Positions 291-47,499 of a stretch of 48,429 nucleotides of DNA are shown piece after piece. The stretch is from the IMG/VR virus record IMGVR_UViG_3300037484_000515, positions 1 through 48,429 of that record. One strand, given 5' to 3'. Position 1 is the first letter of the stretch. The number at the start of each line of letters is the position of its first letter. The stretch is from a virus. Taxonomy: Duplodnaviria; Caudoviricetes. Below the pieces are notes generated by a model. It made no database searches. It saw nothing but the letters and a program-made list of their open reading frames with translations, and was not told the origin of the DNA. Made by a program: the position numbers and the translations under genes.

Positions 291-374
291 AAGCTGCTGA
301 TTATCCACAAGGGATTTCCCAGCAATTCACGAAGTTCAATTGCAGCATTGCTGCTGCAACGCCCTATGTTTATA

Positions 375-11068: not shown

Positions 11069-11285
11069 CTAAACCCTCGCATTTCAATTCACCCCTGAAT
11101 GATTCTACACACGATCCCATAAATCGTCCCCAATGCCCCAATGAAGAATCTAATTGCAACGCCCGTGCCATCATCGCGGCGATATCTAAGGCATCGTCCC
11201 CGCGTATCCATATCCCCGCCCAATCATTCCGCCCCAGACTGGTTACAAAGCGATATACGCCCGTTTCAAGTCTGTTCGTCATCAT
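11043..11285 (-). CDS. Hypothetical protein (DWxGxxIRGD type)
   Basis: NDWAGIWIRGDDA motif; likely start overlaps the upstream stop codon. Confidence 0.5.
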   Translation of the reverse strand: MMTNRLETGVYRFVTSLGRNDWAGIWIRGDDALDIAAMMARALQLDSSLGHWGRFMGSCVESFRGELKCEGLDADGQERA

Positions 11286-11635
11286 CGCTTCACCCGTTTC
11301 CATTGAATCGTCTTGTAATTCTGCAAAAACCTTTCCCACGGCTTGTATTTTTGATCTGGATAGCTGTAATACCCATAAGTCTCACAACTCGGCACTTCAA
11401 ATCCGTCGAAATAGACTTCCACATACCACCGCTCTGTCGTTTCAATGATTTCATAGTTCTTGGTGATCTTCAGGCTATCCCCAAAATCTTCCACGCAGGT
11501 CTCGACGAGAACCGTGTCAGGCCATGATTTCGACCGAACCTCAAGGTGGTGCGGAGCGCATTTTGTCCCGTCCGCCTTTGGGTTTGGCGCTGAACACCCA
11601 AAAATCGGCAGCAAAAGCAGCAAAATCAAGAGCAT
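11282..11635 (-). CDS. Putative lipoprotein
   Basis: Hydrophobic leader ending IFG-C (lipobox-like). Confidence 0.65.
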   Translation of the reverse strand: MLLILLLLLPIFGCSAPNPKADGTKCAPHHLEVRSKSWPDTVLVETCVEDFGDSLKITKNYEIIETTERWYVEVYFDGFEVPSCETYGYYSYPDQKYKPWERFLQNYKTIQWKRVKR

Positions 11636-12536: not shown

Positions 12537-12539
12537 TAT

Positions 12540-19089: not shown

Positions 19090-19446
19090 TTAAAATGGTG
19101 GTTCACCCAAAAAACCGTGATGCTCACGTCTTTCTTGATCCATGATTTTCAGAAAATCATCAGCGGTCAGAATCACCAACCAGCGTTTGTCGTTGCGCCT
19201 GTGCGCCACGTATGCCATCTTGCATCCCGCATCATCAAGTGCCTGCTTCATTGCATCATAGACGTTGATCTTCTCAGTGCGCTTGACCTCGCAGTGCGTT
19301 CCCTCAATGCCATCTACTACGTCGGGAGAATCTGGCGATCCGCGAAACTGCCGCCCGCGCCGAGCATTTGTAAAACCGTGCTCACGCAGATACTTTGCCC
19401 ATTCGCGCTCCCCGCGCTTGCCCTTTGAACAGCTATTGATCGTCAA
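19090..19446 (-). CDS. PD-(D/E)XK Holliday junction resolvase-like nuclease
   Basis: KGKRGERE...SPDV...HCEVKR...KQA. Confidence 0.85.
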   Translation of the reverse strand: MTINSCSKGKRGEREWAKYLREHGFTNARRGRQFRGSPDSPDVVDGIEGTHCEVKRTEKINVYDAMKQALDDAGCKMAYVAHRRNDKRWLVILTADDFLKIMDQERREHHGFLGEPPF

Positions 19447-19831
19447 TTACGCCTCCTTGATCTTCATGTTGTTCTCTGAACCAAGCAATCCAATCCTTGT
19501 GCCATTCCTCCAGACTATCCAGCCGTCTTTGTGCTAACGTATCCAGGGTGTAGATGTAAGCCACACCGTTTTCCATGACGCTGATGGTTGGCCGCGCCTC
19601 CAGCCTGTCCAGCCGCGCCCAGATTCCGGGATGGACATGGTAGGGCACAAAATTGATTACATACAGGGTAGTGTCTCCTATTTGCTGCGCTCCGCCCCAA
19701 ATATAGGCAGCATGGGTGGCGACCGAATCTTGCAGCGCCTCGATGCGGCGGTCTTGCCGCGCTGAGTCCAAAATATCGGTCAGAACCAATCCAAGCACGA
19801 GAATCCACAGCCAGAAAAGCCACATTTTCAT
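19433..19831 (-). CDS. Membrane-anchored protein
   Basis: N-terminal hydrophobic helix and short coiled-coil segments; DSA, DSV, DTT, DTL, DSL motifs. Confidence 0.6.
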   Translation of the reverse strand: MKMWLFWLWILVLGLVLTDILDSARQDRRIEALQDSVATHAAYIWGGAQQIGDTTLYVINFVPYHVHPGIWARLDRLEARPTISVMENGVAYIYTLDTLAQRRLDSLEEWHKDWIAWFREQHEDQGGVIDDQ

Positions 19832-30667: not shown

Positions 30668-30696
30668 GTGAATTCGGAAAGAATAGAGTGCGGGAG

Positions 30697-31466: not shown

Positions 31467-31467
31467 T

Positions 31468-31743
31468 TCAGCAATCGCCCCTCTTCCATCCTGGCTGAAA
31501 GCACGGAGCCTTGTCGAAAATCGTCTCGATCTTTTTTCCTTGTTCGTCTAATTTCTGATTTGTCAACCGCACTTCAATCGTCAGGCTATCCACGCTGGTC
31601 GCCAGACCGTTTTTGTCTTCTTTGGTATCCGTCAAATGCTGGATCTGTTTCTCCGTCCAGTTACGGTTTTTCCAGTAGGTTCCTATGGCCGTGCCAAAGG
31701 CTCCTAAGATACCGATGGCGGTAGCGACTTGTGTTAATTCCAT
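31468..31743 (-). CDS. Single-TM coiled-coil lysis-cassette protein (holin/antiholin-like)
   Basis: AAGGAG RBS; N-terminal TM followed by a coiled coil. Confidence 0.6.
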   Translation of the reverse strand: MELTQVATAIGILGAFGTAIGTYWKNRNWTEKQIQHLTDTKEDKNGLATSVDSLTIEVRLTNQKLDEQGKKIETIFDKAPCFQPGWKRGDC

Positions 31744-31753
31744 GCGTTTCTCC

Positions 31754-33007
31754 TTAGTAGGCGCCGCGATCCCGCACCACATCATAAATTACCGAATCAC
31801 CATCTACCCAGAAAGTCGTATCCGTCCCGCTGAGAATTGTGCCCAATACATTGCGGACAAAGGGAACATCACCAGGGTCATCAACGATTTTCAGGGTTCC
31901 ATTTAGGCCAAAGAGCGCAGTAGAAGAACCGTTATCCAGCCAACCTCTAACCCCGCCCGTATAGTCAATAGCGGGGATGGTCATAACACTCGCCCCGCCT
32001 GTTGCCGAACTTACGTAATGCCCGCCCATAATGAGACTCTTTGCGCTGGACGTAGATTTGTAGGTCGGAGCCGTCGCGCTTTCTTTGTTCATCATGAAGT
32101 TTTCGACGAGGGATACGCTTCCTGATCCGGCCATCTGCACAGTGCCGTTAGTGGCATCGTTATTCTCCATTGCCGACCAAAGAAAGGAGCCGCCGCCCGA
32201 CGTAGTAAGATTAGTGAAAGTCGGCCCATCTCCGGCATTATAGAAAATACCGTGATAGCCCCCGCCAAATCCAGAATTGGCGGCTACGGCGATACAAGTG
32301 CTGTCGCTGTAAATGCGCGAATAGCGAGTATGGGCGAATGCGCCATCTACGACTTTCAATCCGTTCTGCGCCGTCGCACCGGCTGAAAGAGGATATTGCC
32401 AGACGGGTTCTACGAAGAGTGGATAACCCCATTGGCAATCCACAAACCATGCCGAGTCCGCCGAAGAACCCGTTGTGCCCCCCGCATACATCCCGCCATA
32501 CGTGCCGATCTCAAACTGATTCCCCTCGAAGTAGGTTACGTTATCGCCGATGTTAAATGCGTTGGCCTTGATCCGCGAATTGCTGATGGAGTAATTGACG
32601 GTTCCGGCTCGCATCCAGCTTCCCGTTCCGGCACAGCTAATGGTGATATTTTCGATGTGGAACCCCCGTGAAGTCCCGCCCAAAATAAAGATCGTATCCG
32701 ACGCATTGAAGATCACGGAGCCCAGCGGCCCCATGCCCTCAATAAAGATAGCCGTGCCGACCGTCAGATTGCTGTCAGAATAAGTCCCAGGCCAAACATA
32801 GAGCACCCCACCGTCGCCCAAAGACGTTATGGCCGACTGCATAGCTGGGAATTCACCGCCCTTGCCTACAAAGACGACATTATCCGGCTGTTCTATGGCC
32901 TGCGACCCATAAGCACCAAGAATCTGCCCCTGTCCTGGGGGCGGCTGACAAAGCAGGATGCAGATCGCGCAGAACAACAGGCAAAGAATTACAATGAAAG
33001 TTCTCAT
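31754..33007 (-). CDS. Signal-peptide-bearing beta-helix (pectin-lyase-like) protein, possible spike
   Basis: Leader MRTFIVILCLLFCAICILLC; VGKGGEFPAMQSAI...VWPGTY beta-helix start. Confidence 0.7.
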   Translation of the reverse strand: MRTFIVILCLLFCAICILLCQPPPGQGQILGAYGSQAIEQPDNVVFVGKGGEFPAMQSAITSLGDGGVLYVWPGTYSDSNLTVGTAIFIEGMGPLGSVIFNASDTIFILGGTSRGFHIENITISCAGTGSWMRAGTVNYSISNSRIKANAFNIGDNVTYFEGNQFEIGTYGGMYAGGTTGSSADSAWFVDCQWGYPLFVEPVWQYPLSAGATAQNGLKVVDGAFAHTRYSRIYSDSTCIAVAANSGFGGGYHGIFYNAGDGPTFTNLTTSGGGSFLWSAMENNDATNGTVQMAGSGSVSLVENFMMNKESATAPTYKSTSSAKSLIMGGHYVSSATGGASVMTIPAIDYTGGVRGWLDNGSSTALFGLNGTLKIVDDPGDVPFVRNVLGTILSGTDTTFWVDGDSVIYDVVRDRGAY

Positions 33008-33522
33008 TATCGCCTCCACAGTTCAAGTTTAATCCGGTTGCTGTCGTCTGCGGTCGTGCAGTCGTTGGCCGTCTGCTGAATCATAAAATCCAGACCATGC
33101 GGAGGCCAGCCGTTGAAGTCCAGATTGCTGTTATAATGTGCGCTGTCCACCCAAGTAATCGCATTCGTCCAATTCACCGCCGCCGCGCTCAAGCCGTTGT
33201 CAATCGGAAGAGGTGTCCAGGTGATCCCGCCCCCCGCCGAAGACGTGAACGTGTCCGCCACCGCCCCGCCGAAATTCTTGCGGAACCAGAACTCAATGCT
33301 GTCGTGCGTGGCATCCTCATCCAGATCGTCCAGCATCAGCCGCATCACATACAGCCCCAGACCCTGATAATAGCCCAGCGGGATCTTCAACGTGTCCGTC
33401 TGCGTGCTGTCAATCGTAACCGAATCCGACCAGACTTTGTAATAGGCATCGCTCATCCCCGCAGGCTGGCCCCGCGCTACGACGGCCATAAATAAGGCCA
33501 GAATCGCAATGAATCTTTTCAT
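33007..33522 (-). CDS. Signal-peptide-bearing acidic beta-rich protein
   Basis: MKRFIAILALFMAVVARG|Q leader. Confidence 0.75.
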   Translation of the reverse strand: MKRFIAILALFMAVVARGQPAGMSDAYYKVWSDSVTIDSTQTDTLKIPLGYYQGLGLYVMRLMLDDLDEDATHDSIEFWFRKNFGGAVADTFTSSAGGGITWTPLPIDNGLSAAAVNWTNAITWVDSAHYNSNLDFNGWPPHGLDFMIQQTANDCTTADDSNRIKLELWRR

Positions 33523-36275
33523 CTTTCGCCCCCAACTTCTATTTGTTCTTCTTGTTCTGCCTGTTTTGCCAATAACTGAAGTTCGGTGATAATCGCCGCC
33601 CGCTTTGCACCCTCACCGATGGGAATCTTCATACCTTGAGTCAAGAGTTTTACGGCTCGCGGGCTGCGAAGCATCTTGGCAACTACCGTAGATCCGACTT
33701 CGAGTCCGCCAATAATCCAAAGCGCAGAAGGATGATAAATCGCCGCATAACTCGCCGCACCTACCGAAAGTCCCGTATGGACTCGCACAATATTCTTTTT
33801 TACCCCGCCAGCACTTAGAGCTTTATCTGCAACCGAAAAGAATTCTTCCAGATTGCGTGTATAGGTTGGATCTTGAAATAGTTTCGCTTTCGTTCTTGCT
33901 CCAAGTTTCCCAATCGCCGTAAAATCATTGCTTTCAATGGCTTTTTGCAAATAGGCACTTCCAAGTTCTCTGCGAGATTCTGGTGATTCTTTAAGCACCG
34001 CTTCAAGTTGCTTGATGCTTTTATCGTTTGGTTTAAGTAATTGATCGAACACAACGGCAGGTTCATCTCTGAGCTTACTAAGCGTCTCCGCCGCCTCAGC
34101 CTTTGCTTTCCATGCCTTGCGCCCCGATTCCAGTGCCGTCAGTGCTACTGGATCAGCCTTATTGACGGCTGTATTGATTCTTGTTTCCAAATCCCCAACC
34201 GCCTTCGCTGCCGTTCCTTGCTCGATGTTTCGCATGTAGGGAGAATCAGATTTTCTGACAATCCGTTTTAGTCCGCTTAAAAATTCTTCCGCTTCGATTG
34301 CCGAGACACCAAGCTTGGAATTAGCCTCCATGAATCTTTGAATTGTCCTGAAATCACCAGCCGCAATCCCACTTGGATCTATGTTATGTATAGCTTGCAT
34401 TTCATCCCAAATTGGCCGAATAGCAGCTTGAGTTTTTGCAACATCAACGCTAACGGGAGTTTTATCCATGCGTGTTTTCCAGTCATTATAAGCCGCTGTC
34501 CCCTCTTGGTAGAGTTGCTTGATCCGACCTTCAACTCCAGCCCTAACCGACTCACCCGCCGCCAATGGAGTTTGTGCCGTTCCGCCTGTTTGTTGCGCCA
34601 ATTCCTGCGCCCGTCGCGCTATTGCGCCCGCAGTTCTGGCCTGTGCGCCCGTTGCTATGGCACTGCCGCCTGGTGAAGATTCTGCCGCCGCCTGAAGTCC
34701 CGCCACAAGCGGATGTTCACCCGAAGCCGTAGTCGCACTTAACGGCACACCAGATTTCATTACATTTTGCGCTTCGGCATATCCTGGCCTTTTTGAACCT
34801 ATACTCGGAGCGACCGGAACCTTTTTAGGCAATCTACCTATTGCCAATGCTTCGAGATTCCCTACAATCAATCCAACAATATCCCCCATCCCCTCTTTGA
34901 CCAGTCCCCTTTTTATCTTATTGATACCATCGGCCAAAATAGGCTCTCCCGCATCCCATTGAAAATCAATCAATTCATTTAATTTTTCTTGTGGAGACTT
35001 TGTGGTATCAGAAAGAATCCTTTGCTCTTCCGAAATCGCAGCCAATGGCGCGGTAATCAAATTTTCCGGATTCGCAAGGCGATTGAAATTACCCCAAAAC
35101 GATTCAGCATAAGACCCACCCACGCCAAAAGACTCCTGCTTAATGCCTTGCAGTTGTTTCAAATAAGGGTTAGGGGCATTTGCGCCTCCCTGAAGTTCTA
35201 TGGATTGGCGAATTAAGTCATCATCAGATTGTTGCATTGGGTCAAGGGTATCGGGATCGAAGCCGAACCTGGTTAATGCGCTTCTGGCCTCATCGCTCAA
35301 GAAATGAAAGTCCTTTGGCATGGCCATCCCCGTTTCCCATTTATTTTGATGCGCCCTTAGCCGCGTAAACATTAGCTTAAACATTTCATCAATGCCAGAC
35401 AAAATCTGATTTGGGGAATCGGCATTATCAAACATTTTGCGCCACTCTTTCATCTCTTGATCTGTGGCAGCCGCACCGGTTCCCTTATAAACCGAGGCCA
35501 ATTCTCCTGGGGCTGCGGTCGCATCCGCCTGAAAGCGTTTTAATGCGTTAGCAACATCGGGATTCGTAGCGGGCACTTCCTTCGCCGCTAAGTTTTTAAT
35601 ACGATTCCATAATTTGAAGCCACTATTATCTAAGTCCTTTATATTATCATAAATACTTGACAAATGTCCCACTAAAGTATTCATGGCTCGCGTGATGTCC
35701 GCGTCTTTCTTGGCCTCGAAGGATTCGCGTAATGTTTTTCGCGCACCATATTTGGTGTAATCCCACGCGGGGTTTATCTTTAATATTTTTGCCACTACTC
35801 TCTGCCAATATGGTTTTGACATGGCAAAACCAGACGGAAGCGGGATCTTATATACTGCCATACTCCCAGCTACCGCCTCTTCGCCCTCTGGATCAGTATA
35901 ATCGCCCATCCCCGTAGAAGACAATTTTAACCCTGCAAGTTTAGTATCGAGTTCACCCTTAGATTTTGCCGATGCAACATCCGCATCTATCTCCATTTGC
36001 TTAAGGAATTTCTCGTTACCAAAATCCCTATTGGACTTCGCCGCTTCGCCTGTCTGTTTCAAGATTTCCAATGCCAGGCCGTTATCCGCCTGTATCCGCG
36101 CGACATTGCCCGCTTCCTGCATCCGCACCGCCGATTGCATCTTGGCCTCGGCCTCGCCGATCAGCAGGCGCAGTTTATAGGCGATCAAGGCATCATTACC
36201 CTTATCGCGCTCCCGCGCATTTTCGCGCATCCCCTCGCGGAATGCCTGAGCCGCCGCCAGAATATCTAAGGCCAT
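33519..36275 (-). CDS. Large internal virion/DNA ejection protein
   Basis: 918 aa, Ala/Lys-rich and helical, downstream of the nozzle gene, with a C-terminal hydrophobic segment. Confidence 0.65.
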   Translation of the reverse strand: MALDILAAAQAFREGMRENARERDKGNDALIAYKLRLLIGEAEAKMQSAVRMQEAGNVARIQADNGLALEILKQTGEAAKSNRDFGNEKFLKQMEIDADVASAKSKGELDTKLAGLKLSSTGMGDYTDPEGEEAVAGSMAVYKIPLPSGFAMSKPYWQRVVAKILKINPAWDYTKYGARKTLRESFEAKKDADITRAMNTLVGHLSSIYDNIKDLDNSGFKLWNRIKNLAAKEVPATNPDVANALKRFQADATAAPGELASVYKGTGAAATDQEMKEWRKMFDNADSPNQILSGIDEMFKLMFTRLRAHQNKWETGMAMPKDFHFLSDEARSALTRFGFDPDTLDPMQQSDDDLIRQSIELQGGANAPNPYLKQLQGIKQESFGVGGSYAESFWGNFNRLANPENLITAPLAAISEEQRILSDTTKSPQEKLNELIDFQWDAGEPILADGINKIKRGLVKEGMGDIVGLIVGNLEALAIGRLPKKVPVAPSIGSKRPGYAEAQNVMKSGVPLSATTASGEHPLVAGLQAAAESSPGGSAIATGAQARTAGAIARRAQELAQQTGGTAQTPLAAGESVRAGVEGRIKQLYQEGTAAYNDWKTRMDKTPVSVDVAKTQAAIRPIWDEMQAIHNIDPSGIAAGDFRTIQRFMEANSKLGVSAIEAEEFLSGLKRIVRKSDSPYMRNIEQGTAAKAVGDLETRINTAVNKADPVALTALESGRKAWKAKAEAAETLSKLRDEPAVVFDQLLKPNDKSIKQLEAVLKESPESRRELGSAYLQKAIESNDFTAIGKLGARTKAKLFQDPTYTRNLEEFFSVADKALSAGGVKKNIVRVHTGLSVGAASYAAIYHPSALWIIGGLEVGSTVVAKMLRSPRAVKLLTQGMKIPIGEGAKRAAIITELQLLAKQAEQEEQIEVGGER

Positions 36276-36276
36276 A

Positions 36277-36924
36277 TTACGCCACCATCATTAAAAAGGG
36301 TAAAAGTTGCCACAATTCTTCTTCCATCGGAATCGCCGTCGAAGGACTATCATATTGACGCTGCCCTAACCACATCAGTAACTGCTCCATAGGATCTTGC
36401 TTTTGCGGTTGCAGCATTTTAAATACATCCGCCCCTACACCGCCGGCAAGTTGACCCCAACCTGCCTCCCTTTGCGCTTTCAGAGTGGCGATATTACTGC
36501 CCACGCCCGTCAGATAGCCCAGCGCGTTAGATTTCACCTCCTCGTCCAGGCGCATGACCTGTTCGTTCAACGCACTTACTTGCTCGGCCACAACGCGATT
36601 GACGCTGCCCAGCATTTCATTGGCCGCCGTGCTGTCTGCCAGGCCACGCGAGGACACCGCCGCCGCCCCGCGTGTCTGCATAGCACCGGCCTCACGGCTA
36701 ATCCGCGCTAAGCCGCGATTGATGATGTCTTGTTCGACATCGCCGGATAGACCACCCTCCGCCCGCCCTTTCAGGAGATTATAAAGATCCTGCATTTCGT
36801 TTGATTTGCCGCCAGGCAGCTTTACGCCCGCAGCAGCCGCTCCCACTGCAAGAGGATAAAGCATGGGATTAGTTATGATGGGCGTTTTCGTGAAAATATC
36901 GCCTAAATTATCCCAGAAACTCAT
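36277..36924 (-). CDS. Small internal virion/ejection protein
   Basis: Gly/Ala/Gln-rich, SRGLADST motif, podovirus synteny. Confidence 0.65.
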   Translation of the reverse strand: MSFWDNLGDIFTKTPIITNPMLYPLAVGAAAAGVKLPGGKSNEMQDLYNLLKGRAEGGLSGDVEQDIINRGLARISREAGAMQTRGAAAVSSRGLADSTAANEMLGSVNRVVAEQVSALNEQVMRLDEEVKSNALGYLTGVGSNIATLKAQREAGWGQLAGGVGADVFKMLQPQKQDPMEQLLMWLGQRQYDSPSTAIPMEEELWQLLPFLMMVA

Positions 36925-36925
36925 A

Positions 36926-37123
36926 TTATTTCCCTCCCCTTGAAGATAGAGTAACCGCCCCGCCCAGCGCTTCTATGGCCGCGATGATCGCTGCGAATGA
37001 CTCATCCATATAGGTTTCATTTTCAGTAAAACGCCTATCCGTCACTGCCGCTACGCGCCGATGCTCTATGTCTCGCGGCCCTGGGATTCGCGTCAAATAC
37101 TCAATTTTGGGAGTTACTGCCAT
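36926..37123 (-). CDS. Small tail-associated protein
   Basis: Position after the nozzle gene; GGAGGAG RBS. Confidence 0.5.
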   Translation of the reverse strand: MAVTPKIEYLTRIPGPRDIEHRRVAAVTDRRFTENETYMDESFAAIIAAIEALGGAVTLSSRGGK

Positions 37124-40100
37124 TGCTCCTCCATCCCCTCAAGTCGTCTGAACGATAAATCCGAATCTAAATTATGCGAGAGAATCCAGGTAAATTCGCG
37201 GCCCATGAGATCTACCATCTTTTCTTTTCCGCTTTCCGTTGTGGCCATTGTAATCGTCCGGCTCCCGCCCTTCTCGTTCTTGATCGTAATGGTGTAGCTA
37301 TCGGCATTCTGGCTGTCGGGATATTCATAAATAGCGCGAATCGAATGGAGCACTCTATTGCCAAATCTTCCCGTAGGAATCACTTGTTCCCAATACATCG
37401 CTACGGGTTGATCTGCGAACTTGAATGAATCTGGATCAAGCTGATAGAAAGTGTAGTTATTATGATAGATGATAGAATCATCGGATAACCGTGCCCAACC
37501 GCGCACAGCGAGAATCGTTCCGTCTGCATCCCCACGCATCATGACCGCACCGTTCTTGTCAATCTCGACGTTCTGGGCGATCAACGTAGCGGCTATCGGG
37601 CCGGAGCGATACCACCAATCGTATTTCGAGGCGGCATTGGGAGATTCGGCTATCGCCCAGACGTGAGCATGATCGGGATTTGCCGCTGCGGGTCGCCACC
37701 CGTTCAATGTGCCGAAATGGTCATAGGCCGTATCGGGGTAATAGCCGTCTTCTCCGTCCGGTTGAGGCGAGGGCGCATTCCATGATTCACCCGTTCCCAT
37801 CAGGCGCGCCCTATGTTCTATGCGACCATTAATCTGGTGATAATAGAATGCGTCCCATTGCTTCGCTTCGTCTGTGCCCGTATAGGTCAAGGCGTATTGA
37901 TTGGCATTTTCGCCGATGCTACTTATACCCTGCGGATATTCCCAATCAGAAATCCCTTCGTCCGCAGACCAATATCGAAAGACGAGCTGATTGACACTAT
38001 TGACATCCAGAAATCCTACTTGACCTTCTTGGGCGCACATGCAGGCATTAGGCATATTAACATTAGCTAATTCTTGCCAATTATAAAATGCGGACAGCCA
38101 AAGTCCACGCATGAGTTTGCTACTGCTTAAACCCGTGGCCCAGTGCACAAAGGCATAACCTGGCGCGTTGGCGTCAAAGGCTACGCTGGGCGCTATCGTC
38201 GAAACCTGCGATCCGCCCGTGTCTTCGCGGCTATACGTAAAGAACCAAATCAAGCCGCCATTCTGTGAACAGCGTTGTTTGGTGTAAGCATGATCGCCCG
38301 TCGCCACATAACTGCGCCAGACGACGATAATATGATTGCTGTCGTTAGGATCAACGTCTATGTCGGGATAATACTGCGCATCGTCAACGCCGGTGAGGGT
38401 TTCCAGCGCATAACCTTCTCCGCCGCTATATTGCTGCCACTCCATCGTCGCTATGTTGAACTTGCCATAATAAACACGCTTGCTGGTATTATCAAGATTT
38501 TCCCACGTCGAAACCGCATGAATATAAGTTCCCCTGACAACGAAAGACATGGATTGACTTTTAGGCCCGCCCCCTGCTAACTCCCAATCCTTTAGATGAA
38601 CAAACTCATTTGCCCCTGGCGTTAGATAATAGAATCCCCTTATAGGACTATATAAATCACCCCCAGGATTATCTACTCTTCCGACAATAACGGTTCCCGC
38701 TGGCAATGCGCCGACGGCTATGGGCAAAATGCCGAGCGTCTTTTGCGTCGTATAATTGCCGCCCACGCTACGCAGTCCTTCAGCATCCTCGTTATTTATT
38801 TTCATCCAGCGCGGATCATTGGTCGGAGCTATTATTTCTGCGGTGGGAATACTGAATAGCACTTTGTCATCGCGTAATATCGGCATAACCTGCGCCGCAT
38901 CCAAATCAATGTCGGGCATCGCCAAAATCGTTTCGAGTTTATCGCGTATATGGTCTAAAGGACGCGGCTTGCTATTGGGCTCCCAAACATAGAGAATAGA
39001 CCGATCCCCGCGTTTGCCGATGAAATAACTGACGCCATCTACTTCCGCATAAGCGTCTATCGAATTTACTCCGCTATCCCAGGGCTGCTCGGCCAACACT
39101 TCCACCGTGCCATCGCCTAAAAGCAGATATTTGAACAATCTGCGTTTTGTGCCGACTAATAAGAAATCATGGTGAGGCCGGATACCGACTAACTTTTCGT
39201 CGTAATCTGCGCTGATATTGATATAACGCGGTTGAAGATCAAATCCCGCGAGCGGATCATTTACGCGATGCGAATAGCGAATCGTGAACTGTCGCTTCTC
39301 ATCGTCATAATTCACGCCGGTTACCCACATGGTATCGGCAAATATCCGCGCTTGAGAATAGTTGCAATCTATGCGCGGCAATTCGTCTCGCGCTTTATTG
39401 GGATCAATCCAATTCGGCACGGCGGCGCTGGTGGGCTGATTTAGGTCTATGAAATCCAGAACAACGTTTGTTGCGCTCTGACGCCAGCGACTGTTAACTT
39501 GTAGGGTATAGTGTCTCTCATAGGTTAGACTTGGATTGGGCGTTGGAACCTTGACGTATATAAAAATCCATTCTATTCCTATTCCACCCGACGAGCTATA
39601 AATGTCTGATTCATAGTCCGCATCATTATCGTCAGTAAATTTAGCCGTCAAATCCTTATAGAAATCCACATCAATATTTTGCGACGGATGCACTAAATAG
39701 AAATATTTAAAGCGAGCATAGGTGTTACTTCCGATGGTCTCAAAGTTCAGGAAAATGGCATCCAAATTGATGACATTGGCATATCCATCCTGAATGTCAA
39801 AGCGGGCGATTTCTTGATAGGGCGGAAGAAGAGAAGGCGCTAATGCAGGCTCTCCGGCGGCTTGAATCCCCAAGTTTTGATGACTGCGATAGAGACGAAA
39901 ACCCGATAATCGCTTAGGAAACGCCGCACCATCTTCATAGTCTCTAATCGTTAAGCGTAATTTTGTGCCCCAGGTATAATAGGGATCTGCGCTGACGGTT
40001 TCACCGATAGTAAATGGATCAACTTTCAGGTCTGCAACTTGATGTCCGTCATATTCGGCCAAAATTGCATATTTAACATTGGCATTGGCATAGCCGAAAT

Positions 40101-40908
40101 TATTGCCCAAGTGCCAGGTGTGCGGCGTTCCGCCGGTTGGGCTATCTACAATCTCTAAGTCCGGTGTGTAGTCCGGCAAGCCCACGCCGCGCACCAGGTC
40201 GGCAAACTCATGCAAACACCAGCCATCTTGGGGATGCGCTGAATCGTATCTTTTGAAATAAGCATTGACTTCTTCTTCGCTGACAGGCGTCTTAGGCTGG
40301 CGATTGACATAACGCCATTGCAGCGGAAACGAATCGGACTTGTTGAACATAGGATGCAATTGTTCGCCGCCGTCATACATAAAATCGCCCAATGCCGCTC
40401 GCAATACCCCCTTATCCGACAGCCACTTCGCCGGTCGGTCATGGCAATCACTCACCCCAAATTCCTCGATAAAATTAGGGGCATTTGACATTTTATCATA
40501 GGGCGATAGATCGTCCCAGCCGCAGTAGAACGGCCCCTCGATAAACCATTGCCCGCCCGTTTCTAAGCTGCGCTCTAATTCATACCAATCGAATCCCTTA
40601 CTGCCTTTGACCTGAATGACCAACAACTCCGATGGCCGATTGATCTTGCTCTCCGCCGCCCAGACGCGATTGAAGGTCATCTGTCCGACAGAGAGTATTT
40701 GATCGCCGGATTCTAACCGTCCATTGAATAGTTGATTATTCGGATCAAATATCTTGCTGCCGGTGCTCTTACGCAAGCAGCCTGGGGATTTTGTCAAATC
40801 TACGTTCCGCGCTTCCCGTGCTATATTCGGGGATAAATCGCCTGCATCGGGATTCGTCGCCATTCCGCCGGAAAAATTCTTGATTGCAAATGTCGGCTTG
40901 AATTGCAT
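37114..40908 (-). CDS. Tail nozzle/tubular protein B-like, with inserted domains
   Basis: N-terminal NFSGGM...DL...NVDL...GCLRK...G, a beta-propeller-like body, and no signal peptide. Confidence 0.7.
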   Translation of the reverse strand: MQFKPTFAIKNFSGGMATNPDAGDLSPNIAREARNVDLTKSPGCLRKSTGSKIFDPNNQLFNGRLESGDQILSVGQMTFNRVWAAESKINRPSELLVIQVKGSKGFDWYELERSLETGGQWFIEGPFYCGWDDLSPYDKMSNAPNFIEEFGVSDCHDRPAKWLSDKGVLRAALGDFMYDGGEQLHPMFNKSDSFPLQWRYVNRQPKTPVSEEEVNAYFKRYDSAHPQDGWCLHEFADLVRGVGLPDYTPDLEIVDSPTGGTPHTWHLGNNFGYANANVKYAILAEYDGHQVADLKVDPFTIGETVSADPYYTWGTKLRLTIRDYEDGAAFPKRLSGFRLYRSHQNLGIQAAGEPALAPSLLPPYQEIARFDIQDGYANVINLDAIFLNFETIGSNTYARFKYFYLVHPSQNIDVDFYKDLTAKFTDDNDADYESDIYSSSGGIGIEWIFIYVKVPTPNPSLTYERHYTLQVNSRWRQSATNVVLDFIDLNQPTSAAVPNWIDPNKARDELPRIDCNYSQARIFADTMWVTGVNYDDEKRQFTIRYSHRVNDPLAGFDLQPRYINISADYDEKLVGIRPHHDFLLVGTKRRLFKYLLLGDGTVEVLAEQPWDSGVNSIDAYAEVDGVSYFIGKRGDRSILYVWEPNSKPRPLDHIRDKLETILAMPDIDLDAAQVMPILRDDKVLFSIPTAEIIAPTNDPRWMKINNEDAEGLRSVGGNYTTQKTLGILPIAVGALPAGTVIVGRVDNPGGDLYSPIRGFYYLTPGANEFVHLKDWELAGGGPKSQSMSFVVRGTYIHAVSTWENLDNTSKRVYYGKFNIATMEWQQYSGGEGYALETLTGVDDAQYYPDIDVDPNDSNHIIVVWRSYVATGDHAYTKQRCSQNGGLIWFFTYSREDTGGSQVSTIAPSVAFDANAPGYAFVHWATGLSSSKLMRGLWLSAFYNWQELANVNMPNACMCAQEGQVGFLDVNSVNQLVFRYWSADEGISDWEYPQGISSIGENANQYALTYTGTDEAKQWDAFYYHQINGRIEHRARLMGTGESWNAPSPQPDGEDGYYPDTAYDHFGTLNGWRPAAANPDHAHVWAIAESPNAASKYDWWYRSGPIAATLIAQNVEIDKNGAVMMRGDADGTILAVRGWARLSDDSIIYHNNYTFYQLDPDSFKFADQPVAMYWEQVIPTGRFGNRVLHSIRAIYEYPDSQNADSYTITIKNEKGGSRTITMATTESGKEKMVDLMGREFTWILSHNLDSDLSFRRLEGMEEQWQ

Positions 40909-40912
40909 GATT

Positions 40913-41821
40913 TTAGGGATCGGCTTCCAGAATAATATCCGTGTAGAAATCGGTTGTATCGGCGGCATCCGCTGCTTCGGGCGTGAACACTAATTTCACG
41001 GCATCAACAAAACCTGGGGTAAAGCTGAATGCCTTGAAGTCCGCCGCGCCCGACGCAATATTGACCGTGAGAGTATCAAGATAAGCACTTGTTACTACGC
41101 CCCGCGAAACTCCCTGAATATAGACCGTCAGCGAGTCGTCATCGTATTTACTGCCGTCGCCCACTGTGCACAAGTAGGCTCGATCCGGCATTTGATAGAC
41201 CCCAGGGCTGGTCTCAATGCGGAAATCTATGATGTCCGAAGTGGTATTGGCCGCGCCAATGGCCAATTTTGCGCTGCGAGTGCGCCAGATATTGTAGTGG
41301 GGAATGCGCTTGACGTAATTGCGGGGCGGGTCATACATGTTGCTGGACTCGTCGGCCAAATAAACGCCCACCCACTCCGTAGAATCCGCCGCTACTCCGT
41401 AGGGATAAGAAAAAACAAAATGGACATATTGACCGGCATAGGATTCCAGCCAGGGCATAGCGAACGAGTGGTTATTCTGTGAGCTTGATCCTATGCCGTT
41501 GAAATCCTGCCAGAGTTCGGAATGGATCAACACCCAACGATCCTGGTCTGGATCGGCGTTCTGTTCCGCCAAGTAGGTGTCAATTTGCAGCCAATAATGA
41601 GTCGTATTCGTGCCGACTTCATCAAGATCAAGGAAGAGGGTGGATCGGATCGGGCGGCGATTATCGGCGCTGGATTTGTAAAGCCAAATCTGATCGCTGG
41701 TGTCGGGCGTATTGGACACGATAGTGTCCCCCGCCTCGAAAACCGTGCGATATAATTGAGCTGCCGACCAATTTGCCGACATCAAGAGAATGGTTGTTAA
41801 GGCCAAAACAAGTCTTTTCAT
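40913..41821 (-). CDS. Signal-peptide-bearing acidic beta-rich protein
   Basis: GGAGGAGG RBS; MKRLVLALTTILLMSANWSAA|Q leader. Confidence 0.75.
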   Translation of the reverse strand: MKRLVLALTTILLMSANWSAAQLYRTVFEAGDTIVSNTPDTSDQIWLYKSSADNRRPIRSTLFLDLDEVGTNTTHYWLQIDTYLAEQNADPDQDRWVLIHSELWQDFNGIGSSSQNNHSFAMPWLESYAGQYVHFVFSYPYGVAADSTEWVGVYLADESSNMYDPPRNYVKRIPHYNIWRTRSAKLAIGAANTTSDIIDFRIETSPGVYQMPDRAYLCTVGDGSKYDDDSLTVYIQGVSRGVVTSAYLDTLTVNIASGAADFKAFSFTPGFVDAVKLVFTPEAADAADTTDFYTDIILEADP

Positions 41822-41889
41822 CTATCGTCCTCCTCCCCAGTCGGGGATTCTCACCGTGCCGATATGGGTCTCAAATTCGGTATTCGTTT

Positions 41890-43422
41890 TCATTCTTCAA
41901 CCACGATCACCTGCCCCACGCTCGCCGCCGCCGGTGGCGCTCCCCCCGTCTCAAACGTGAAGCTGAAGCGAGGGCGGTTGGCGGCGGTGGCATTCTCGGA
42001 TGAAGCGAAATCATTACTTGCAATGCCAGTCTGTAAGAGTAATCCACCCTCTTGCCCCGATGCTTGTCCATACCATTCTGTTGCCGTTGTCGTTGAAATC
42101 GCCCATGAATACCAAGTATTTGTAGTCGTAACATTTACTATTGATTCAGCAGTTAGTGCTCGATCTCCACCAGTGCCGTCTCCCGTATTATATGTTCTGG
42201 TGTCTGTTGCACTCATACAGCCCGCTGTTGTCCATTCGTTTGCATCACTCGCCCAATCATTCCAGGTTACATCGCCATCGTCGTTATCTGTGCCGTTTTC
42301 ATCACCTTTAACCCATTGATTTTTCCAGATTGCATAAACATTTGTATTGCCATCACTATAATTGCCGCTACATTTCAAAGAACATACACCAGTTATATTC
42401 GTAGCACCAACACCAAGAGTAGAACCTACACCAACTGGACGTATAACAGAATTATAATCATAAGCAGCTTCCGATACAGTAATAACCGTAAGAACTCCAT
42501 AATTTCTATCCCCAAATATCTGATTAAGCTGTGCATCATCAATACTCCCATTCCCTATCGAAACCTGATCGTTATGCCGGATCTTCGCGGAAGCATTCCC
42601 CGTCATAATCGCATCCATCCGGTTCACGTTCACCCGCTCGCGGAATTGCCCCGCCGCCCATCCCTGCATCACCGGAAACTCCACGCTGTCGGGCTGTCCG
42701 TCGTATTCCAACCATTGCCCGCCCATCTCCAGCGCGTAATGTTGCCATTGCTTGAGCGTCGTTCCGTGCTTCGTGCCCGTCGGGTTGGCGATATTCGTCA
42801 GCGTAATATCTACATCGGTCGCCACCGCGCACCCCGCCCATTCGGGATGCAGTTGGGCTTGCTCTACCGCCCATAGCGAAAACGCAGGCTCCATCGTGTA
42901 GCGGTGGATCACGTTGCCGTTCTGCTTGATGACTTCAAAGATCACGCCCGAATAGATCACCCACCGCAGAGTGTCGCCGGAAATCACCGGAGTCCCGAAC
43001 GTCGCCGGAGCGCTGAATCCCTCCACCACCGCGCCTGTCAGAGTATCCTCCAGCACAAACCCGTTGAGCTGGTAGATCATGGTGTAGGTCGTATCATCCC
43101 ACGTCACGGTGAACAGGGTGCGCCCCGCCCGATTCTGCTCGACTTTCAGCACGTCAGTATTGCACGTCCATTTCCGATTCGCGCCACTGCCCGACTGCAC
43201 CCACGTATTGCTGATCGGTTGCCAGACCCCGCCATTGGGATAATGCCAGATCTGCCCGCCGATAGAAAGCTGGTGCTGCGCTCGCCACTTCCCCCACGGC
43301 TGGAGCACACTATCAGAATTCACCACGGATTGATACCCGCTCGGAACCCACGCCGCTTTTGTAGGGGTTTGATTCATCAAACCCGCCGCCAGCACCAGAA
43401 CTATGTAAAGGAGTCGTTTCAT
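41890..43422 (-). CDS. Signal-peptide-bearing protein with a C-terminal DNRLRE-like domain
   Basis: MKRLLYIVLVLAAGLMNQTPTKA|A leader; DAQL...RNYG, VTWN...WTTAG, WYSW, FASSE...NRP. Confidence 0.75.
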   Translation of the reverse strand: MKRLLYIVLVLAAGLMNQTPTKAAWVPSGYQSVVNSDSVLQPWGKWRAQHQLSIGGQIWHYPNGGVWQPISNTWVQSGSGANRKWTCNTDVLKVEQNRAGRTLFTVTWDDTTYTMIYQLNGFVLEDTLTGAVVEGFSAPATFGTPVISGDTLRWVIYSGVIFEVIKQNGNVIHRYTMEPAFSLWAVEQAQLHPEWAGCAVATDVDITLTNIANPTGTKHGTTLKQWQHYALEMGGQWLEYDGQPDSVEFPVMQGWAAGQFRERVNVNRMDAIMTGNASAKIRHNDQVSIGNGSIDDAQLNQIFGDRNYGVLTVITVSEAAYDYNSVIRPVGVGSTLGVGATNITGVCSLKCSGNYSDGNTNVYAIWKNQWVKGDENGTDNDDGDVTWNDWASDANEWTTAGCMSATDTRTYNTGDGTGGDRALTAESIVNVTTTNTWYSWAISTTTATEWYGQASGQEGGLLLQTGIASNDFASSENATAANRPRFSFTFETGGAPPAAASVGQVIVVEE

Positions 43423-45782
43423 GGCGTTAAATTCCCATAAAACTGAATCAGCAACTGATCTGTGCTGTCCGCCGGAGTTACTATCCCGATCTTCGCGCCC
43501 GATGCTATCGTCCCATTGTCAATCGAAGTGAACCAATTCTGCCGCCGCGCCGTCCCTGTCTCCGTGCCTACCTGCATCGCTTCGATGACCGCCGCCGCCC
43601 CCGTCGTTAATGGCATCTCCACCAGCGTAAAATCGAAATCGTCTACACTCCCATCGGTTTCAACAAGAATCGAATCAATCGTATAGACTACCCCTGTCAG
43701 ATTCGCCCAGATATTCGACGTGTCCGCCACAAGATGCTTCGGGTTGACAATCGCCACGCTGAAATTCTTCTTGAGCGGAACCGCCGCAATCTGCTCCGGC
43801 AGCGACAGCGTGATCGTCCCCGCCCCATTCGTTACGGTCAATTCGTTGGCCGTCCCCGTCATAGTCGCCAGCACCGGATCAGTCGTCCCATCCCCTACCG
43901 GAATCTGCCCATTCGTCGCCACGCCCAACGCCGTAATCGCATCCGTCCCTGATCCTACCAGCAACCCCCCATCCGTCAGCGTATTCGCCCCCGTTCCACC
44001 CTCATTCACCGCAAAGGGATATGCCGTATTGACAAGATTCTCCGCTATCGTGCCGTCAGCTATATCCGTCAGGGTTGCTTCCAGCGGTTGATAAGTCGCT
44101 CCTACCCACGTCCGATAGGCCACATCCGCGCTATCAGCTGGGTCTAAGAAATCCAGTCCACTCACCCAGTCTCGATAGGCCACTCCCGCCGAATCCGCCG
44201 GATCTAAAAAGTCGCTCACCACGAGGTCAACCGTGCCATCATCATCCTGATAGGTAACGGTGATTCCCGTCTCGGTATTCCCCGTGAACATCGCGCCGGA
44301 CAGATCTTGCGCCACCTCATCATCTATCTCCAGACTGTCCGTCGTAATGGCTATCCCCCCGCCGGATAAAACATTCGCCGTCACCGTAACCGCCCCATCA
44401 GCACCTCCGCCGCTCAGCCCATCCCCCGCCGTTACCGCCGAAATATCCCCCGTCTCCGTAATGGTGATATTGTCCGGCACCTGAGCGTCCGTGACCGAGC
44501 CTTGCAATTCACTCAGATCCAGCACCGCCTCAAGCTCAGCCTCCACGCCGGTGGCATTGAGTTCTTCTGCCGAAACCGCATCTGCCGTCAGGTCTGCGGC
44601 TGTAATCGTCGAATCCTGAATCTCCCCGGCCGTTCCTCCATCCACCGCCCCGGCAGCGATCTGAGCATCAGCCACCGTTCCACTTAACTCCGAGAAGTCA
44701 TCCTGGGCATTGTCCTGGGTGTCCACATAAGTCCGGGTGGCCGCATCCGCGCTATCTGCGGGGTCTAAATAATCGCCCACTTGCGTTTGATGCTGTTCGA
44801 TATATTGATCCCACTGAACGTCGGTGGCATTGGTCGTATCCAGCGTGATGTCATTGGGCACCTGAGCATCGCTCGCTGCTCCGCCCAGCTCGCTAATATT
44901 ATCATGTGCCGCATCCGTCTCTAATCCCGGCACTTCCGCCTCGGTCGCCATCGTCGAAACAATCTCGTCCGCCGCCCAGGGATTTGCCGTGTTGATCCAA
45001 TTTCCCGCAATCGTCTCGGCTTGCACCATGAACGCCACCGCGCCTGAATCCGGCTTGGCGGAAATCCGCGCCGACATCACAGTAGTATCCGACACCGTTA
45101 CAATCGTGGCTACCGTATCCGGCCATGTCAGCGCCGAAGAAGTATCCTGCTCCGCGTCAAGATCTGTCTTGGTCGCATCCCAAGAAGTTGTATCACTATC
45201 AAGTTGATAGTCGCCAATCGTTATCGTGGTCGCGCCAGATACTTCATAAGGGCTTTTCCACGCCACCAGCCGCATCGTCCAGATGTTCGTGTCGGGGAAT
45301 ACCCCGAAATAGGGAAATGCCCCATTCGCCCCGCTGTCTTCGTTGGCAACAGACAATCTGCCCATCGTTGGAAAATCTAAGCTGCTACTGGTAAGTGATG
45401 GGCTGAACACGGCATAGGTTACTTTGTTCGCAACGGCCTTGACGTAAAGAGTATCGTAGTATATGCTGGAGGTATCGCCCTGAGAATATCCCAATAGCAG
45501 CACGATCAAGCTGTCATCATCAGCCTTGTCGCACGTAACCTCCAGCATGGCATGATCCGCCAAAAAAGGTGTGCCCGCCTTGTCATATACCAAAAAATTG
45601 AATGGTTCAGACAAGGCTCGCGCTTTATTTGCCCAACTTCCGGTAAACGTCGAATTGATCCCGCCTGTTGAGCAAACACTCGCGTCATAAAATAGAGCGG
45701 CATTTCCAATACTGATTTGCTGCGCGTTAGCTATGATCGCCATACCAGCGAGGCATAACCACGCCAGCTTCCATCGTGCCAC
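43419..45782 (-). CDS. Signal-peptide-bearing phage fibre protein
   Basis: GTG start at 45782 after an AGGTGA RBS gives MARWKLAWLCLAGMAIIANA|Q. Fibre motifs: DAATRTYVD, VTAGDGLSGG, GNTETGITVTYQD, VNEGGTGA, TNGAGTITLSLP. Confidence 0.78.
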   Translation of the reverse strand: MARWKLAWLCLAGMAIIANAQQISIGNAALFYDASVCSTGGINSTFTGSWANKARALSEPFNFLVYDKAGTPFLADHAMLEVTCDKADDDSLIVLLLGYSQGDTSSIYYDTLYVKAVANKVTYAVFSPSLTSSSLDFPTMGRLSVANEDSGANGAFPYFGVFPDTNIWTMRLVAWKSPYEVSGATTITIGDYQLDSDTTSWDATKTDLDAEQDTSSALTWPDTVATIVTVSDTTVMSARISAKPDSGAVAFMVQAETIAGNWINTANPWAADEIVSTMATEAEVPGLETDAAHDNISELGGAASDAQVPNDITLDTTNATDVQWDQYIEQHQTQVGDYLDPADSADAATRTYVDTQDNAQDDFSELSGTVADAQIAAGAVDGGTAGEIQDSTITAADLTADAVSAEELNATGVEAELEAVLDLSELQGSVTDAQVPDNITITETGDISAVTAGDGLSGGGADGAVTVTANVLSGGGIAITTDSLEIDDEVAQDLSGAMFTGNTETGITVTYQDDDGTVDLVVSDFLDPADSAGVAYRDWVSGLDFLDPADSADVAYRTWVGATYQPLEATLTDIADGTIAENLVNTAYPFAVNEGGTGANTLTDGGLLVGSGTDAITALGVATNGQIPVGDGTTDPVLATMTGTANELTVTNGAGTITLSLPEQIAAVPLKKNFSVAIVNPKHLVADTSNIWANLTGVVYTIDSILVETDGSVDDFDFTLVEMPLTTGAAAVIEAMQVGTETGTARRQNWFTSIDNGTIASGAKIGIVTPADSTDQLLIQFYGNLTP

Positions 45783-46491
45783 GAAATCTCTCACCTTTGA
45801 TAAGTTGCGATCTGAATTTATCTTTGAGTCTATTTGTCTCTAAAATCGTCTCTTGCCAACGCCGCAGCGTAGCCCTCACGTCCCCCTTGTCGCGCAAGAA
45901 CTTCCAGGCCGCTCGTTCGGCGATGCAATCATGATAATCTTCAGGGAACTCAGGATAGAGCGAATCCCAATCGTCTATCGTGGGCTGCGGCGGACGCCGG
46001 AAATAAGAACACAGGAAGTTCGTCGAATCAGCTTCCGAAAGATAGGGATAGAACGAGACATAAGTGATATTGGCGTTGGTGTCCGTATCCCATTCACTCC
46101 ATTCGGCAAAGGCTATCGGCGATCCCGTGGTGTCAATCGCGCCCGAATTGTTCGCATCGTCTATCGCGTCTTTATTCCACTTCCCCAAACGCGGTGGACT
46201 ATTGGGCTTGTAGTAAATCCGGCGCACGCTGAAAATCTTATGCGTCGTCGGCAGTTCGGTCGCGCCGATAGCCGTTTCCAGATTGTGCTTGTTCAGCGCC
46301 AGCGTCGTGGCCGTCAACGTCAAGAGCGTGGGCTTACGATACGTGCATCCGGTCTCGCGGCAGATATTCCAATACTCATCCGCCAGCCGATTGCAGATTT
46401 CCGTATCATCTTCGGATTGCAAGCCTTCAGCATAACCCGCCTTCTGCCCGATCTTTTGCAGATAGCGGTCTTTTAGGCTTTCAAAAGTCAT
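45727..46491 (-). CDS. Head-tail adaptor / tubular protein A-like
   Basis: MTFESLK..., TGSPIAF, FYPY, YFRRP, EFPEDYHDCIAERAAW pattern; synteny. Confidence 0.7.
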   Translation of the reverse strand: MTFESLKDRYLQKIGQKAGYAEGLQSEDDTEICNRLADEYWNICRETGCTYRKPTLLTLTATTLALNKHNLETAIGATELPTTHKIFSVRRIYYKPNSPPRLGKWNKDAIDDANNSGAIDTTGSPIAFAEWSEWDTDTNANITYVSFYPYLSEADSTNFLCSYFRRPPQPTIDDWDSLYPEFPEDYHDCIAERAAWKFLRDKGDVRATLRRWQETILETNRLKDKFRSQLIKGERFRGTMEAGVVMPRWYGDHS

Positions 46492-46527
46492 AGGTATAGG
46501 CTCCCCGCTCGCACGAGGAGCCTCTCC

Positions 46528-46836
46528 TTATTCCTCTTTCGCGGGTCGCCCGCGCTTCGGCTTTTCCAAATCGTCCAAGCGGGATTCGATTCGCCCTACT
46601 CGCGCCAAGAGTTCTTCATAATCCATCACCTTGTCGCCAGGCGTTCCGGCTTCAAGATGAATTTTGAAAACGGTGGGGAATGCCGACATTCTCTTTACGG
46701 CATTATTATCCACCAGGCAAGTCCATCCGTTTTCCGGCTTGAAAACATAGTTCTCAAAGCGTTTCTGAGGCTTAACTTCCCGCCCCTCGGCAATATACTC
46801 TACCAGGGTATAGGCTTGCACAATTGTTTCTGCCAT
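46528..46836 (-). CDS. Small post-capsid protein with a KRGRP tail
   Basis: C-terminal KPKRGRPAKEE; position. Confidence 0.6.
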   Translation of the reverse strand: MAETIVQAYTLVEYIAEGREVKPQKRFENYVFKPENGWTCLVDNNAVKRMSAFPTVFKIHLEAGTPGDKVMDYEELLARVGRIESRLDDLEKPKRGRPAKEE

Positions 46837-46888
46837 ATCAACTCCAGATTAAGTGAAGGGCGGGATGTAGTTCACCCCGCCCGTTGAT

Positions 46889-47488
46889 TTACTGCGTAAT
46901 CCAGCCCGTATAGCGCTGAACGACATCCACTCCGACACCACAGGTATCATTCGCCGAAGCGCCACCCGTCGAGAAATCAAGCTCGATCATCAAGTAGTTC
47001 GCGGCAGAAGCCGTAACTAATTGGGCGGCACTGAACGCATAGATACCATGCGCATCATAAGTTGTCGTCGCCAAATCATCATCCGTCGGGCCGAGAGCAA
47101 TAGTATCTTCATCGGCGTTCAAATGAAGTGGTCGCCAACTCATCGCGGCTGCCGCTAAATTGGTGGAATCCGTAGCGTTTGAAACCCACAACCTGACCAT
47201 GACGGTATCTGTAACGGTCAGAGTTATAGTGCCTCCCGCCCTGACTTCCACATTCAGCGCAATCGCATCGGGAAAGGGCTGTCCAAACCCAAACAGATTC
47301 ATAGCGCACGGTTTTCCAAATTCTGTTGCGTCATTGCCCGCGATAGAATCTATATCTATCGCATTGTAGCGCACGTAGTATTTGGTTTTCGGCCCAACAA
47401 ACCCATTGGGTGTATCGTCTGGTGTAACCGCTGCCCATAGTGGAAGAGCGAGAACGGCTACCAGCAGAATGCTAAGTAGTTTCTTCAT
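46889..47488 (-). CDS. Signal-peptide-bearing protein in the capsid-decoration position
   Basis: AAGGAGGAG RBS right after the capsid stop; MKKLLSILLVAVLALPLWA|A leader. Confidence 0.78.
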   Translation of the reverse strand: MKKLLSILLVAVLALPLWAAVTPDDTPNGFVGPKTKYYVRYNAIDIDSIAGNDATEFGKPCAMNLFGFGQPFPDAIALNVEVRAGGTITLTVTDTVMVRLWVSNATDSTNLAAAAMSWRPLHLNADEDTIALGPTDDDLATTTYDAHGIYAFSAAQLVTASAANYLMIELDFSTGGASANDTCGVGVDVVQRYTGWITQ

Positions 47489-47499
47489 TTCACTCCTCC

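Follow-up and report, generated by a model that had tools for sequence, protein, structure and literature searches.

Enrichment of a Bacteroidota-type O-glycosylation motif in leader-bearing virion-module proteins of an uncultured short-tailed phage

Six leader-bearing proteins encoded in the virion module of an uncultured tailed phage are enriched in the strict motif D-(S/T)-(A/I/L/V/M/T), with 37 sites observed against 15.1 +/- 3.6 in shuffled sequences (2.45-fold, p=0.0003). The DNA analysed, hereafter the window, is the whole virus record IMGVR_UViG_3300037484_000515 (Duplodnaviria; Caudoviricetes), which comprises 48,429 nucleotides (nt) and carries direct terminal repeats of 113 bp. The usual assumption is that tailed phages produce and assemble their parts in the cytoplasm. 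As described in PMC12871550, D-(S/T)-(A/I/L/V/M/T) is the motif of the general O-glycosylation system of Bacteroidota and is modified on non-cytoplasmic proteins. We therefore propose, with slightly better than even confidence and on the evidence of sequence, that the six products would be exported by the general secretion (Sec) pathway, O-glycosylated in the periplasm by a Bacteroidota-type system and then joined to the particle. Their genes all lie on one strand, among those of the capsid, the adaptor and the nozzle-like and ejection-like proteins:

46889..47488, minus strand: leader-bearing protein of 199 amino acids (aa), directly after the capsid gene, predicted beta-sandwich; 4 sites against 1.2 expected
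43419..45794, minus strand: fibre-like leader-bearing protein of 791 aa; 13 sites against 7.4 expected
41890..43422, minus strand: leader-bearing protein of 510 aa; 5 sites against 1.9 expected
40913..41821, minus strand: leader-bearing protein of 302 aa, two predicted small beta domains; 5 sites against 2.0 expected
33007..33522, minus strand: leader-bearing protein of 171 aa, glutamine (Gln) after the likely cleavage site; 5 sites against 1.1 expected
31754..33007, minus strand: leader-bearing protein of 417 aa, beta-helix/tailspike-like by eye; 5 sites against 1.5 expected

The overall expectation of 15.1 was derived from 3,000 composition-preserving shuffles, and local shuffles of 30 residues gave an excess of 2.33-fold. 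The 37 sites fall within 2,394 aa (4, 13, 5, 5, 5 and 5 in the proteins of 199, 791, 510, 302, 171 and 421 aa, the last being the length of the open reading frame (ORF) extending to 33019, while 417 aa assumes the likely ATG at 33007), which reproduces the initial annotation's count of about 37 in about 2,390 aa. Each of the six proteins exceeded its own expectation, and the excess persisted when any one of them was left out, including the 791-aa protein (24 against 7.7), as well as when the repeats within the 791-aa protein were removed along with the stretch that it shares with the 302-aa protein (33 against 14.0). The capsid halves, the portal and the 1,284-aa and 918-aa proteins together contained 7 sites in 3,208 aa against 8.9 expected, in agreement with the hand count of about 7 in about 3,175 aa for capsid, portal, nozzle and large ejection protein. 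The roughly seven-fold contrast drawn from those counts is real in raw terms, but about 2.3-fold of it reflects composition, and 2.45-fold is the corrected excess; the enrichment itself survives composition control. Ten core virion ORFs (13 against 11.5) and 20 cytoplasmic ORFs (7 against 8.9) were close to expectation. Two further exported proteins, which had also been said to carry the motif, did so with 7 sites against 0.7:

19433..19831, minus strand: membrane-anchored protein of 132 aa, used as a non-virion exported control; 5 sites against 0.4 expected
11282..11635, minus strand: predicted lipoprotein of 117 aa; 2 sites against 0.2 expected

These results showed that the motif excess in the six proteins is real, specific and confined to leader-bearing proteins. 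The specificity was evident from related patterns counted in the same six: the reversed [ST]D (36 against 34), the mirror motif (19 against 15), E[ST]h (3 against 6.4), N[ST]h (7 against 9.2) and D[ST] followed by any other third residue (16 against 18.7). When all 20 residues were scanned at position 1, D was the most raised (37 against 15), and the others with counts above 5 reached at most 1.6-fold; at position 2, S and T stood out, with Ser preferred (DS 3.45-fold, DT 1.78-fold). At position 3, observed and expected counts were 8 and 2.4 for L, 6 and 1.9 for I, 12 and 3.6 for T, 6 and 2.6 for V and 5 and 3.9 for A, and charged residues were low. The third-residue order given for Bacteroidota glycoproteomes in PMC12871550 is L, I, V, T, A, S, M, and the position-by-position profile of the six (Asp and not Glu first, Ser ahead of Thr second, and L, I, V or T third) fits the Bacteroidota motif, which bears out the earlier identification of the motif as the Bacteroidota sequon. 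N-x-S/T was also mildly raised in the six (33 against 20.6, p=0.003), and so was D-x-S/T.

The excess could instead be a habit of the folds, by which a turn leads into a beta strand, or an accident of the lineage, with no glycosylation at all. Many sites do stand before what look like beta strands (D-S/T-L/I/V-x-V/I), a number of them belong to paralogous or repeated stretches, and the mild rise of N-x-S/T and D-x-S/T, together with three sites in the leaderless adaptor, points the same way. Yet the excess outlasts de-duplication, is shared by the unrelated membrane-anchored protein and lipoprotein, divides cellular phyla by exported and cytoplasmic class as described below, and is missing from homologous fibres with or without a leader; we thus regard a purely structural origin as very unlikely. 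The homologues were collected with residues 560-791 of the 791-aa protein, which retrieved 526 relatives, of which the best 120 were used; leaving out the window's own entry, there were 119, including 51 leader-bearing by a home-made rule and 68 leaderless. Within this set, the leaderless homologues had 214 sites against 328 (0.65) and the leader-bearing ones 328 against 345 (0.95). Four orthologues (P0218, P0239, P0219 and P0221), all with leaders, had 48 against 22.0 (2.2-fold, p=0.0005), while the other 47 leader-bearing homologues had 280 against 323 (0.87). Of the 13 sites in the 791-aa protein, six retain a sequon in 3-5 of five aligned rows, and the changes often stay inside the allowed set. 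Across 16 viral loci sharing a short fibre segment, 49 leader-bearing proteins had 179 sites against 166 (1.08), and the leader-bearing proteins after the capsid gene of a distant phage (L011) had 3 against 4.0. Because leader-bearing homologues and other phage loci are at chance, the motif excess characterises this lineage and is not generic to exported fibres. Leader-bearing virion-module genes, often directly after the capsid gene, were common in unrelated uncultured phages (L004, L006, L011, L013-L028, L060 and L061), which had no motif excess where counted.

A cultured phage gives a precedent for exported virion proteins, by analogy: gp085-087 of Cellulophaga phage phi18:3 (NC_021794; L152:2892-8584) have leaders followed by Gln, and their annotation cites tandem mass spectrometry (MS/MS) of virions. 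These three proteins are depleted of the motif (3 against 9.7, p=0.01). Exported virion proteins can thus gain or shed the motif, and since it is enriched here and avoided in phi18:3, gain and loss together suggest that such proteins really meet the transferase. The same depletion means that export need not serve glycosylation. The initial annotation had proposed that it does, giving a glycan-coated virion, and in favour of that idea all six proteins lie above expectation, with an excess that equals or exceeds that of the exported proteins of candidate hosts. Against it stand the fibre family, in which export without motif excess is the rule, and the depletion in gp085-087, so that we consider it quite unlikely that export evolved for the glycosylation of virion parts.

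Leaders of basic, hydrophobic and cleavage-site type were recognised at the N-terminus of all six proteins by eye and by the home-made hydrophobicity rule, with Gln after the cleavage site in about four of the six by eye. The leader shape and this Gln make export likely. In a control genome, 10 of 32 proteins had a similar Gln pattern, and the Q-rule was dropped as a host marker. Searches of Pfam, PHROGs and NCBIfam gave no family match for any of the six, and PDB sequence searches gave no match; the 510-aa protein had neither a family nor a PDB match, and the 417-aa protein no database match. The 199-aa protein, a predicted beta-sandwich on a weak single-sequence model (predicted local distance difference test score (pLDDT) 50; best fold-search Z 4.7), is a candidate capsid decoration. 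When the six proteins alone served as the database, it showed weak similarity (E=0.002) to the 171-aa protein. The model of the 417-aa protein was unusable (pLDDT 32), and the single-sequence models of these two proteins (199 and 417 aa) were too poor for sequon exposure tests. The small beta domains of the 302-aa protein, which has Gln after its likely cleavage site, resemble unnamed viral proteins, and a shared stretch (E=3e-7) makes the N-domain of the 791-aa protein its paralogue. The 791-aa protein further contains a shaft segment common to phage tail fibres, including fibres with Mtd_N or Peptidase_S74 domains. Its start is less certain than the other five: initiation at the GTG codon implies an overlap of 56-68 nt with the adaptor gene, and in the public annotation (P0187) the gene begins at a later ATG without the leader.

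Membership of the virion is likely from gene position, the shaft homology of the 791-aa protein, the lack of any other recognised fibre gene in the virion module, leaderless ones included, and the phi18:3 precedent. The surrounding genes are as follows:

336..1100, minus strand: first half of the major capsid protein (phrog_334, PF13252), no leader, 0 sequons
47500-47928, minus strand: second half of the major capsid protein, across the terminal repeat from the first half
2245-4077: portal
4068-5807: terminase
45727..46491, minus strand: SU10-type head-tail adaptor (Pfam PF24175, E=8e-9), no leader; it places the six genes in the virion module
37114..40968, minus strand: leaderless protein of 1,284 aa, nozzle by position only; 4 sequons against 4.1 expected

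The labels nozzle and ejection protein (the latter for the 918-aa product) rest on gene position, and searches of Pfam, PHROGs, NCBIfam and phage records with the 1,284-aa protein gave nothing. Alternatively, the six proteins might remain in the envelope after export and glycosylation and serve there in surface display, superinfection exclusion or lysogen conversion. Before lysis an exported protein has no contact with the cytoplasmic capsid, the shaft segment also occurs in cellular leader-bearing surface proteins, the phage carries an integrase-family gene besides its envelope genes (GT-C and lipoprotein), and Q-rule exports of Porphyromonas gingivalis phages are read as envelope modifiers in PMC10367356. 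Set against this, the six genes stand on one strand between those of capsid, adaptor, nozzle-like and ejection-like proteins, no other fibre gene was recognised, and the leader-bearing proteins of phi18:3 are annotated from virion MS/MS. Residence in the envelope is in our view unlikely, though it deserves to be taken seriously.

The initial annotation had placed the host in the Fibrobacterota-Chlorobiota-Bacteroidota (FCB) superphylum. Indirect hints do lead to lineages whose exported proteins carry the motif, but no spacer, prophage or close-relative link was found in the genomes searched. A Shine-Dalgarno-like word precedes 23 of 32 starts in the window (background 17%); the corresponding counts are 2 of 21 for phi18:3 and 6 of 29 for crAss001. 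Bacteroidia and Flavobacteriia are not known to have Shine-Dalgarno sites. A second hint is a palindrome of the repetitive extragenic palindromic (REP) type:

43358..43385, plus strand: GTAG-type REP-like palindrome, 28-nt exact copy, inside the leader-coding part of the 510-aa gene

This palindrome is multi-copy. In two small phyla, 19 of 285 genomes and 2 of 26 genomes carried it, and in two control phyla, with 121 genomes each, none did. Both small phyla show a 1.6-2.6-fold motif excess in exported proteins, split along the line between exported and cytoplasmic proteins: in 11 genomes each, exported proteins had 244 sites against 154 in the 285-genome phylum (of G001; loci L072-L081, L112-L121 and L181-L200) and 336 against 132 in the 26-genome phylum (of G002; loci L082-L091 and L122-L131). 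Four sampled REP-positive genomes of the 285-genome phylum gave 183 against 88, and five control genomes (Hydrogenedentales, Acidobacteriota, Omnitrophota, Verrucomicrobia and one titled only "bacterium") gave 98 against 97. With too few genomes, neither motif-positive phylum can be Bacteroidota. The larger one we take to be Zixibacteria, from its phylum size, a guanine-plus-cytosine content near 50% and dockerin-like repeats; Zixibacteria are an FCB-group lineage. The label Ignavibacteriales attached to G001 was not accepted, as its phylum comprises 285 genomes, the same as its class. Because of the Shine-Dalgarno use and the occurrence of the palindrome in two small phyla with motif excess, the host is probably a motif-using, Shine-Dalgarno-using FCB-type bacterium outside Bacteroidota, with Zixibacteria as our best guess. 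The excess in the two phyla also suggests, from sequence counts, that the D-(S/T) glycosylation system extends beyond Bacteroidota. As side observations, the palindrome is read in frame in the signal-peptide region of the 510-aa protein, giving an unusual polar stretch before the cleavage site, and two loci of the 285-genome phylum encode motif-rich leader-bearing proteins, namely L169 (G067:C246; 12 against 1.8), which also encodes the C-terminal domain of the 791-aa family (E=4e-24), and L171 (G111:C1:17836-21126; 18 against 5.7).

The phage itself encodes a possible glycan-modifying pair:

7085..8557, minus strand: multi-pass membrane protein of 490 aa with a predicted GT-C fold (PMT_2/ArnT-like)
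8554-9738, minus strand: B12-binding radical S-adenosylmethionine (radical-SAM) gene, adjoining the GT-C gene upstream of the terminase

The GT-C prediction comes from ESM Atlas features (0.99) and template-modelling (TM) scores of 0.7-0.8 to PMT_2-bearing clusters; there was no Pfam hit at E 0.1 and no NCBIfam hit, and a search of 5 genomes with the GT-C query found no match. GT-C folds modify lipid A, O-antigen and other envelope glycans. The predicted pair could modify the host envelope or exported proteins. That the phage GT-C, maybe with the radical-SAM protein as methyltransferase, adds or extends the glycan on the six proteins would agree with its PMT_2/ArnT-like fold and with the Bacteroidota system, for which PMC12871550 gives the transferase and ligase as not yet identified and the glycans as often methylated. 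Its gene, however, lies outside the virion module, such folds act on other envelope glycans as well, and the candidate host phyla show the motif without the gene, so that we think this most unlikely. Beside the leader-bearing fibre genes of L014, a multi-pass membrane protein (16370-17800, minus strand) without a Pfam hit is GT-C-like by eye only.

With these alternatives set out, the route that we favour can be given as a series of steps. Late genes would be translated with Sec leaders, signal peptidase I (SPI) would release the proteins into the periplasm, and the host system would add an O-glycan at D-S/T sites; once lysis had mixed the compartments, the mature proteins would attach to the head and tail built in the cytoplasm and form decoration, fibres and spike there. 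Glycosylation would have been tuned up by this lineage on proteins already travelling through the periplasm and would not be the reason for their export. A wider form, in which the whole outer kit of decoration, fibres and spike is periplasm-built and host-glycosylated and the system also operates in two or more further uncultured phyla, including that of the host, is put forward tentatively, as a possibility that we hold to be less than probable.

Several points weigh against our proposal. Glycosylation of the six is judged likely from the motif alone, and their likely place in the virion from the indirect evidence given above; receptor binding could also be the task of the leaderless 1,284-aa protein. 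The leader calls by eye and home-made rule include visible false calls. The leaderless adaptor (3 against 1.0, p=0.08) and a leaderless endolysin-like ORF (2 against 0.4) are blemishes in the contrast, and the depletion in phi18:3 runs opposite to the enrichment here. The four orthologues were picked at >=86% coverage of the searched region after the counts had been seen, and P0202, at 82% coverage, has a ratio of 0.99. The cellular surface proteins with the shaft segment are from genomes titled Omnitrophota and Patescibacteria. On the host side, the candidate phyla yielded no prophage, no spacer of clustered regularly interspaced short palindromic repeats (CRISPR) and no close capsid or terminase relative; the 'non-leader' class of the 26-genome phylum is also raised (1.71), probably through missed leaders; and the palindrome search covered four phyla, with KSB1, Calditrichota, other FCB phyla and Bacteroidota outside the genomes sampled. 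Finally, the completeness estimate of the record is 54% despite its terminal repeats. The prophage search found no more than distant capsids and terminases in the 285-genome phylum and none in the 26-genome phylum, and no spacer-like DNA match was confirmed for 30000-48429 in 285 genomes or for 1-19000 in 5 genomes.

As for the rest of the genome, the closest cultured capsids are Bcep22-like and distant (identity up to 29%). The capsid gene is split by about 0.8 kb (pieces 336-1100, 3-308, 47935-48429 and 47500-47928, minus strand), with an inserted ORF that is HNH endonuclease-like by eye; the interruption is likely a self-splicing intron, with no Rfam match at gathering score, and no tRNA or Rfam match was found in the window. 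A DUF6948 gene (20188-20759, minus strand) is followed by a short ORF with Gly-Ser/Asp-Gly-Tyr repeats. Three DNA runs labelled soil or sediment metagenome contain parts of the stretch, and no RNA run was among those listed. Viral contigs contained no close relatives with gene context, only distant terminases, GTDB genomes contained no relative matching the terminase alignment, and a scan of metagenomes (15 of 64 parts) found two short related contigs.

Searches of a largely open-access literature brought up no description of tailed-phage parts being glycosylated by the host in the periplasm. Already known are the motif system, phage proteins that follow the Q-rule and glycosylated mycobacteriophage virions; new are the involvement of six proteins at once, with small jelly-roll-type beta-domain proteins beside fibres, negative controls matched by homology, the contrary case of phi18:3 and a host that is likely not a member of Bacteroidota. 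If the proposal is true, phage assembly would have a second compartment and the host would supply the phage with a glycan coat, so that receptor binding, stability and self/non-self recognition would be affected. For uncultured phages, the motif would also allow export and host lineage to be read from sequence alone. The cellular counts suggest that the Bacteroidota system reaches other phyla, which would help to find the transferase by comparative genomics. The contrast with phi18:3, which avoids the motif, makes glycan function directly testable in culturable Bacteroidota phages.

Known systems resemble the present one in part. PMC10367356 reports that P. gingivalis phages encode Q-rule signal-peptide proteins; these are likewise adapted to the Sec pathway of the host and have Gln after the cleavage site, but they are read as envelope modifiers, and the term 'glycosyl' is absent from the paper. 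Gln exposure in Q-rule SPI substrates forms a continuum outside Bacteroidetes, according to PMC5837995. In glycosylated mycobacteriophage virions, phage glycosyltransferases modify the capsid and tail tube (Freeman et al. 2023, as cited in PMC10877033). Sugars would sit on virion proteins in both cases, as a candidate feature here, but the route proposed here runs through export and a periplasmic system of the host, and the capsid and core tail are not its targets. PhicrAss001 has head and tail fibres gp21-gp26 and gp29, with gp22 docking via residues 1-26 (PMC10172136). It shares with the present phage outer fibres, a short tail and a motif-using host, but its fibres have no leaders and carry the motif at chance (16 against 13.1), and its membrane-anchored gp27 has 4 sites against 0.3. 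Phage phi18:3 is likewise short-tailed, with an FCB host and leader-bearing virion proteins with Gln, and differs in motif depletion, in having three such proteins instead of six and in not using Shine-Dalgarno sites; it is crAss-related (Pachyviridae), whereas the present phage has a Bcep22/SU10-like architecture. With the Bacteroidota system (PMC12871550), the differences are that virion-module proteins are concerned here, that the host appears to use Shine-Dalgarno sites and to lie outside Bacteroidota and that the system is proposed here from the motif, while the motif, its position preferences and its confinement to non-cytoplasmic proteins are alike.

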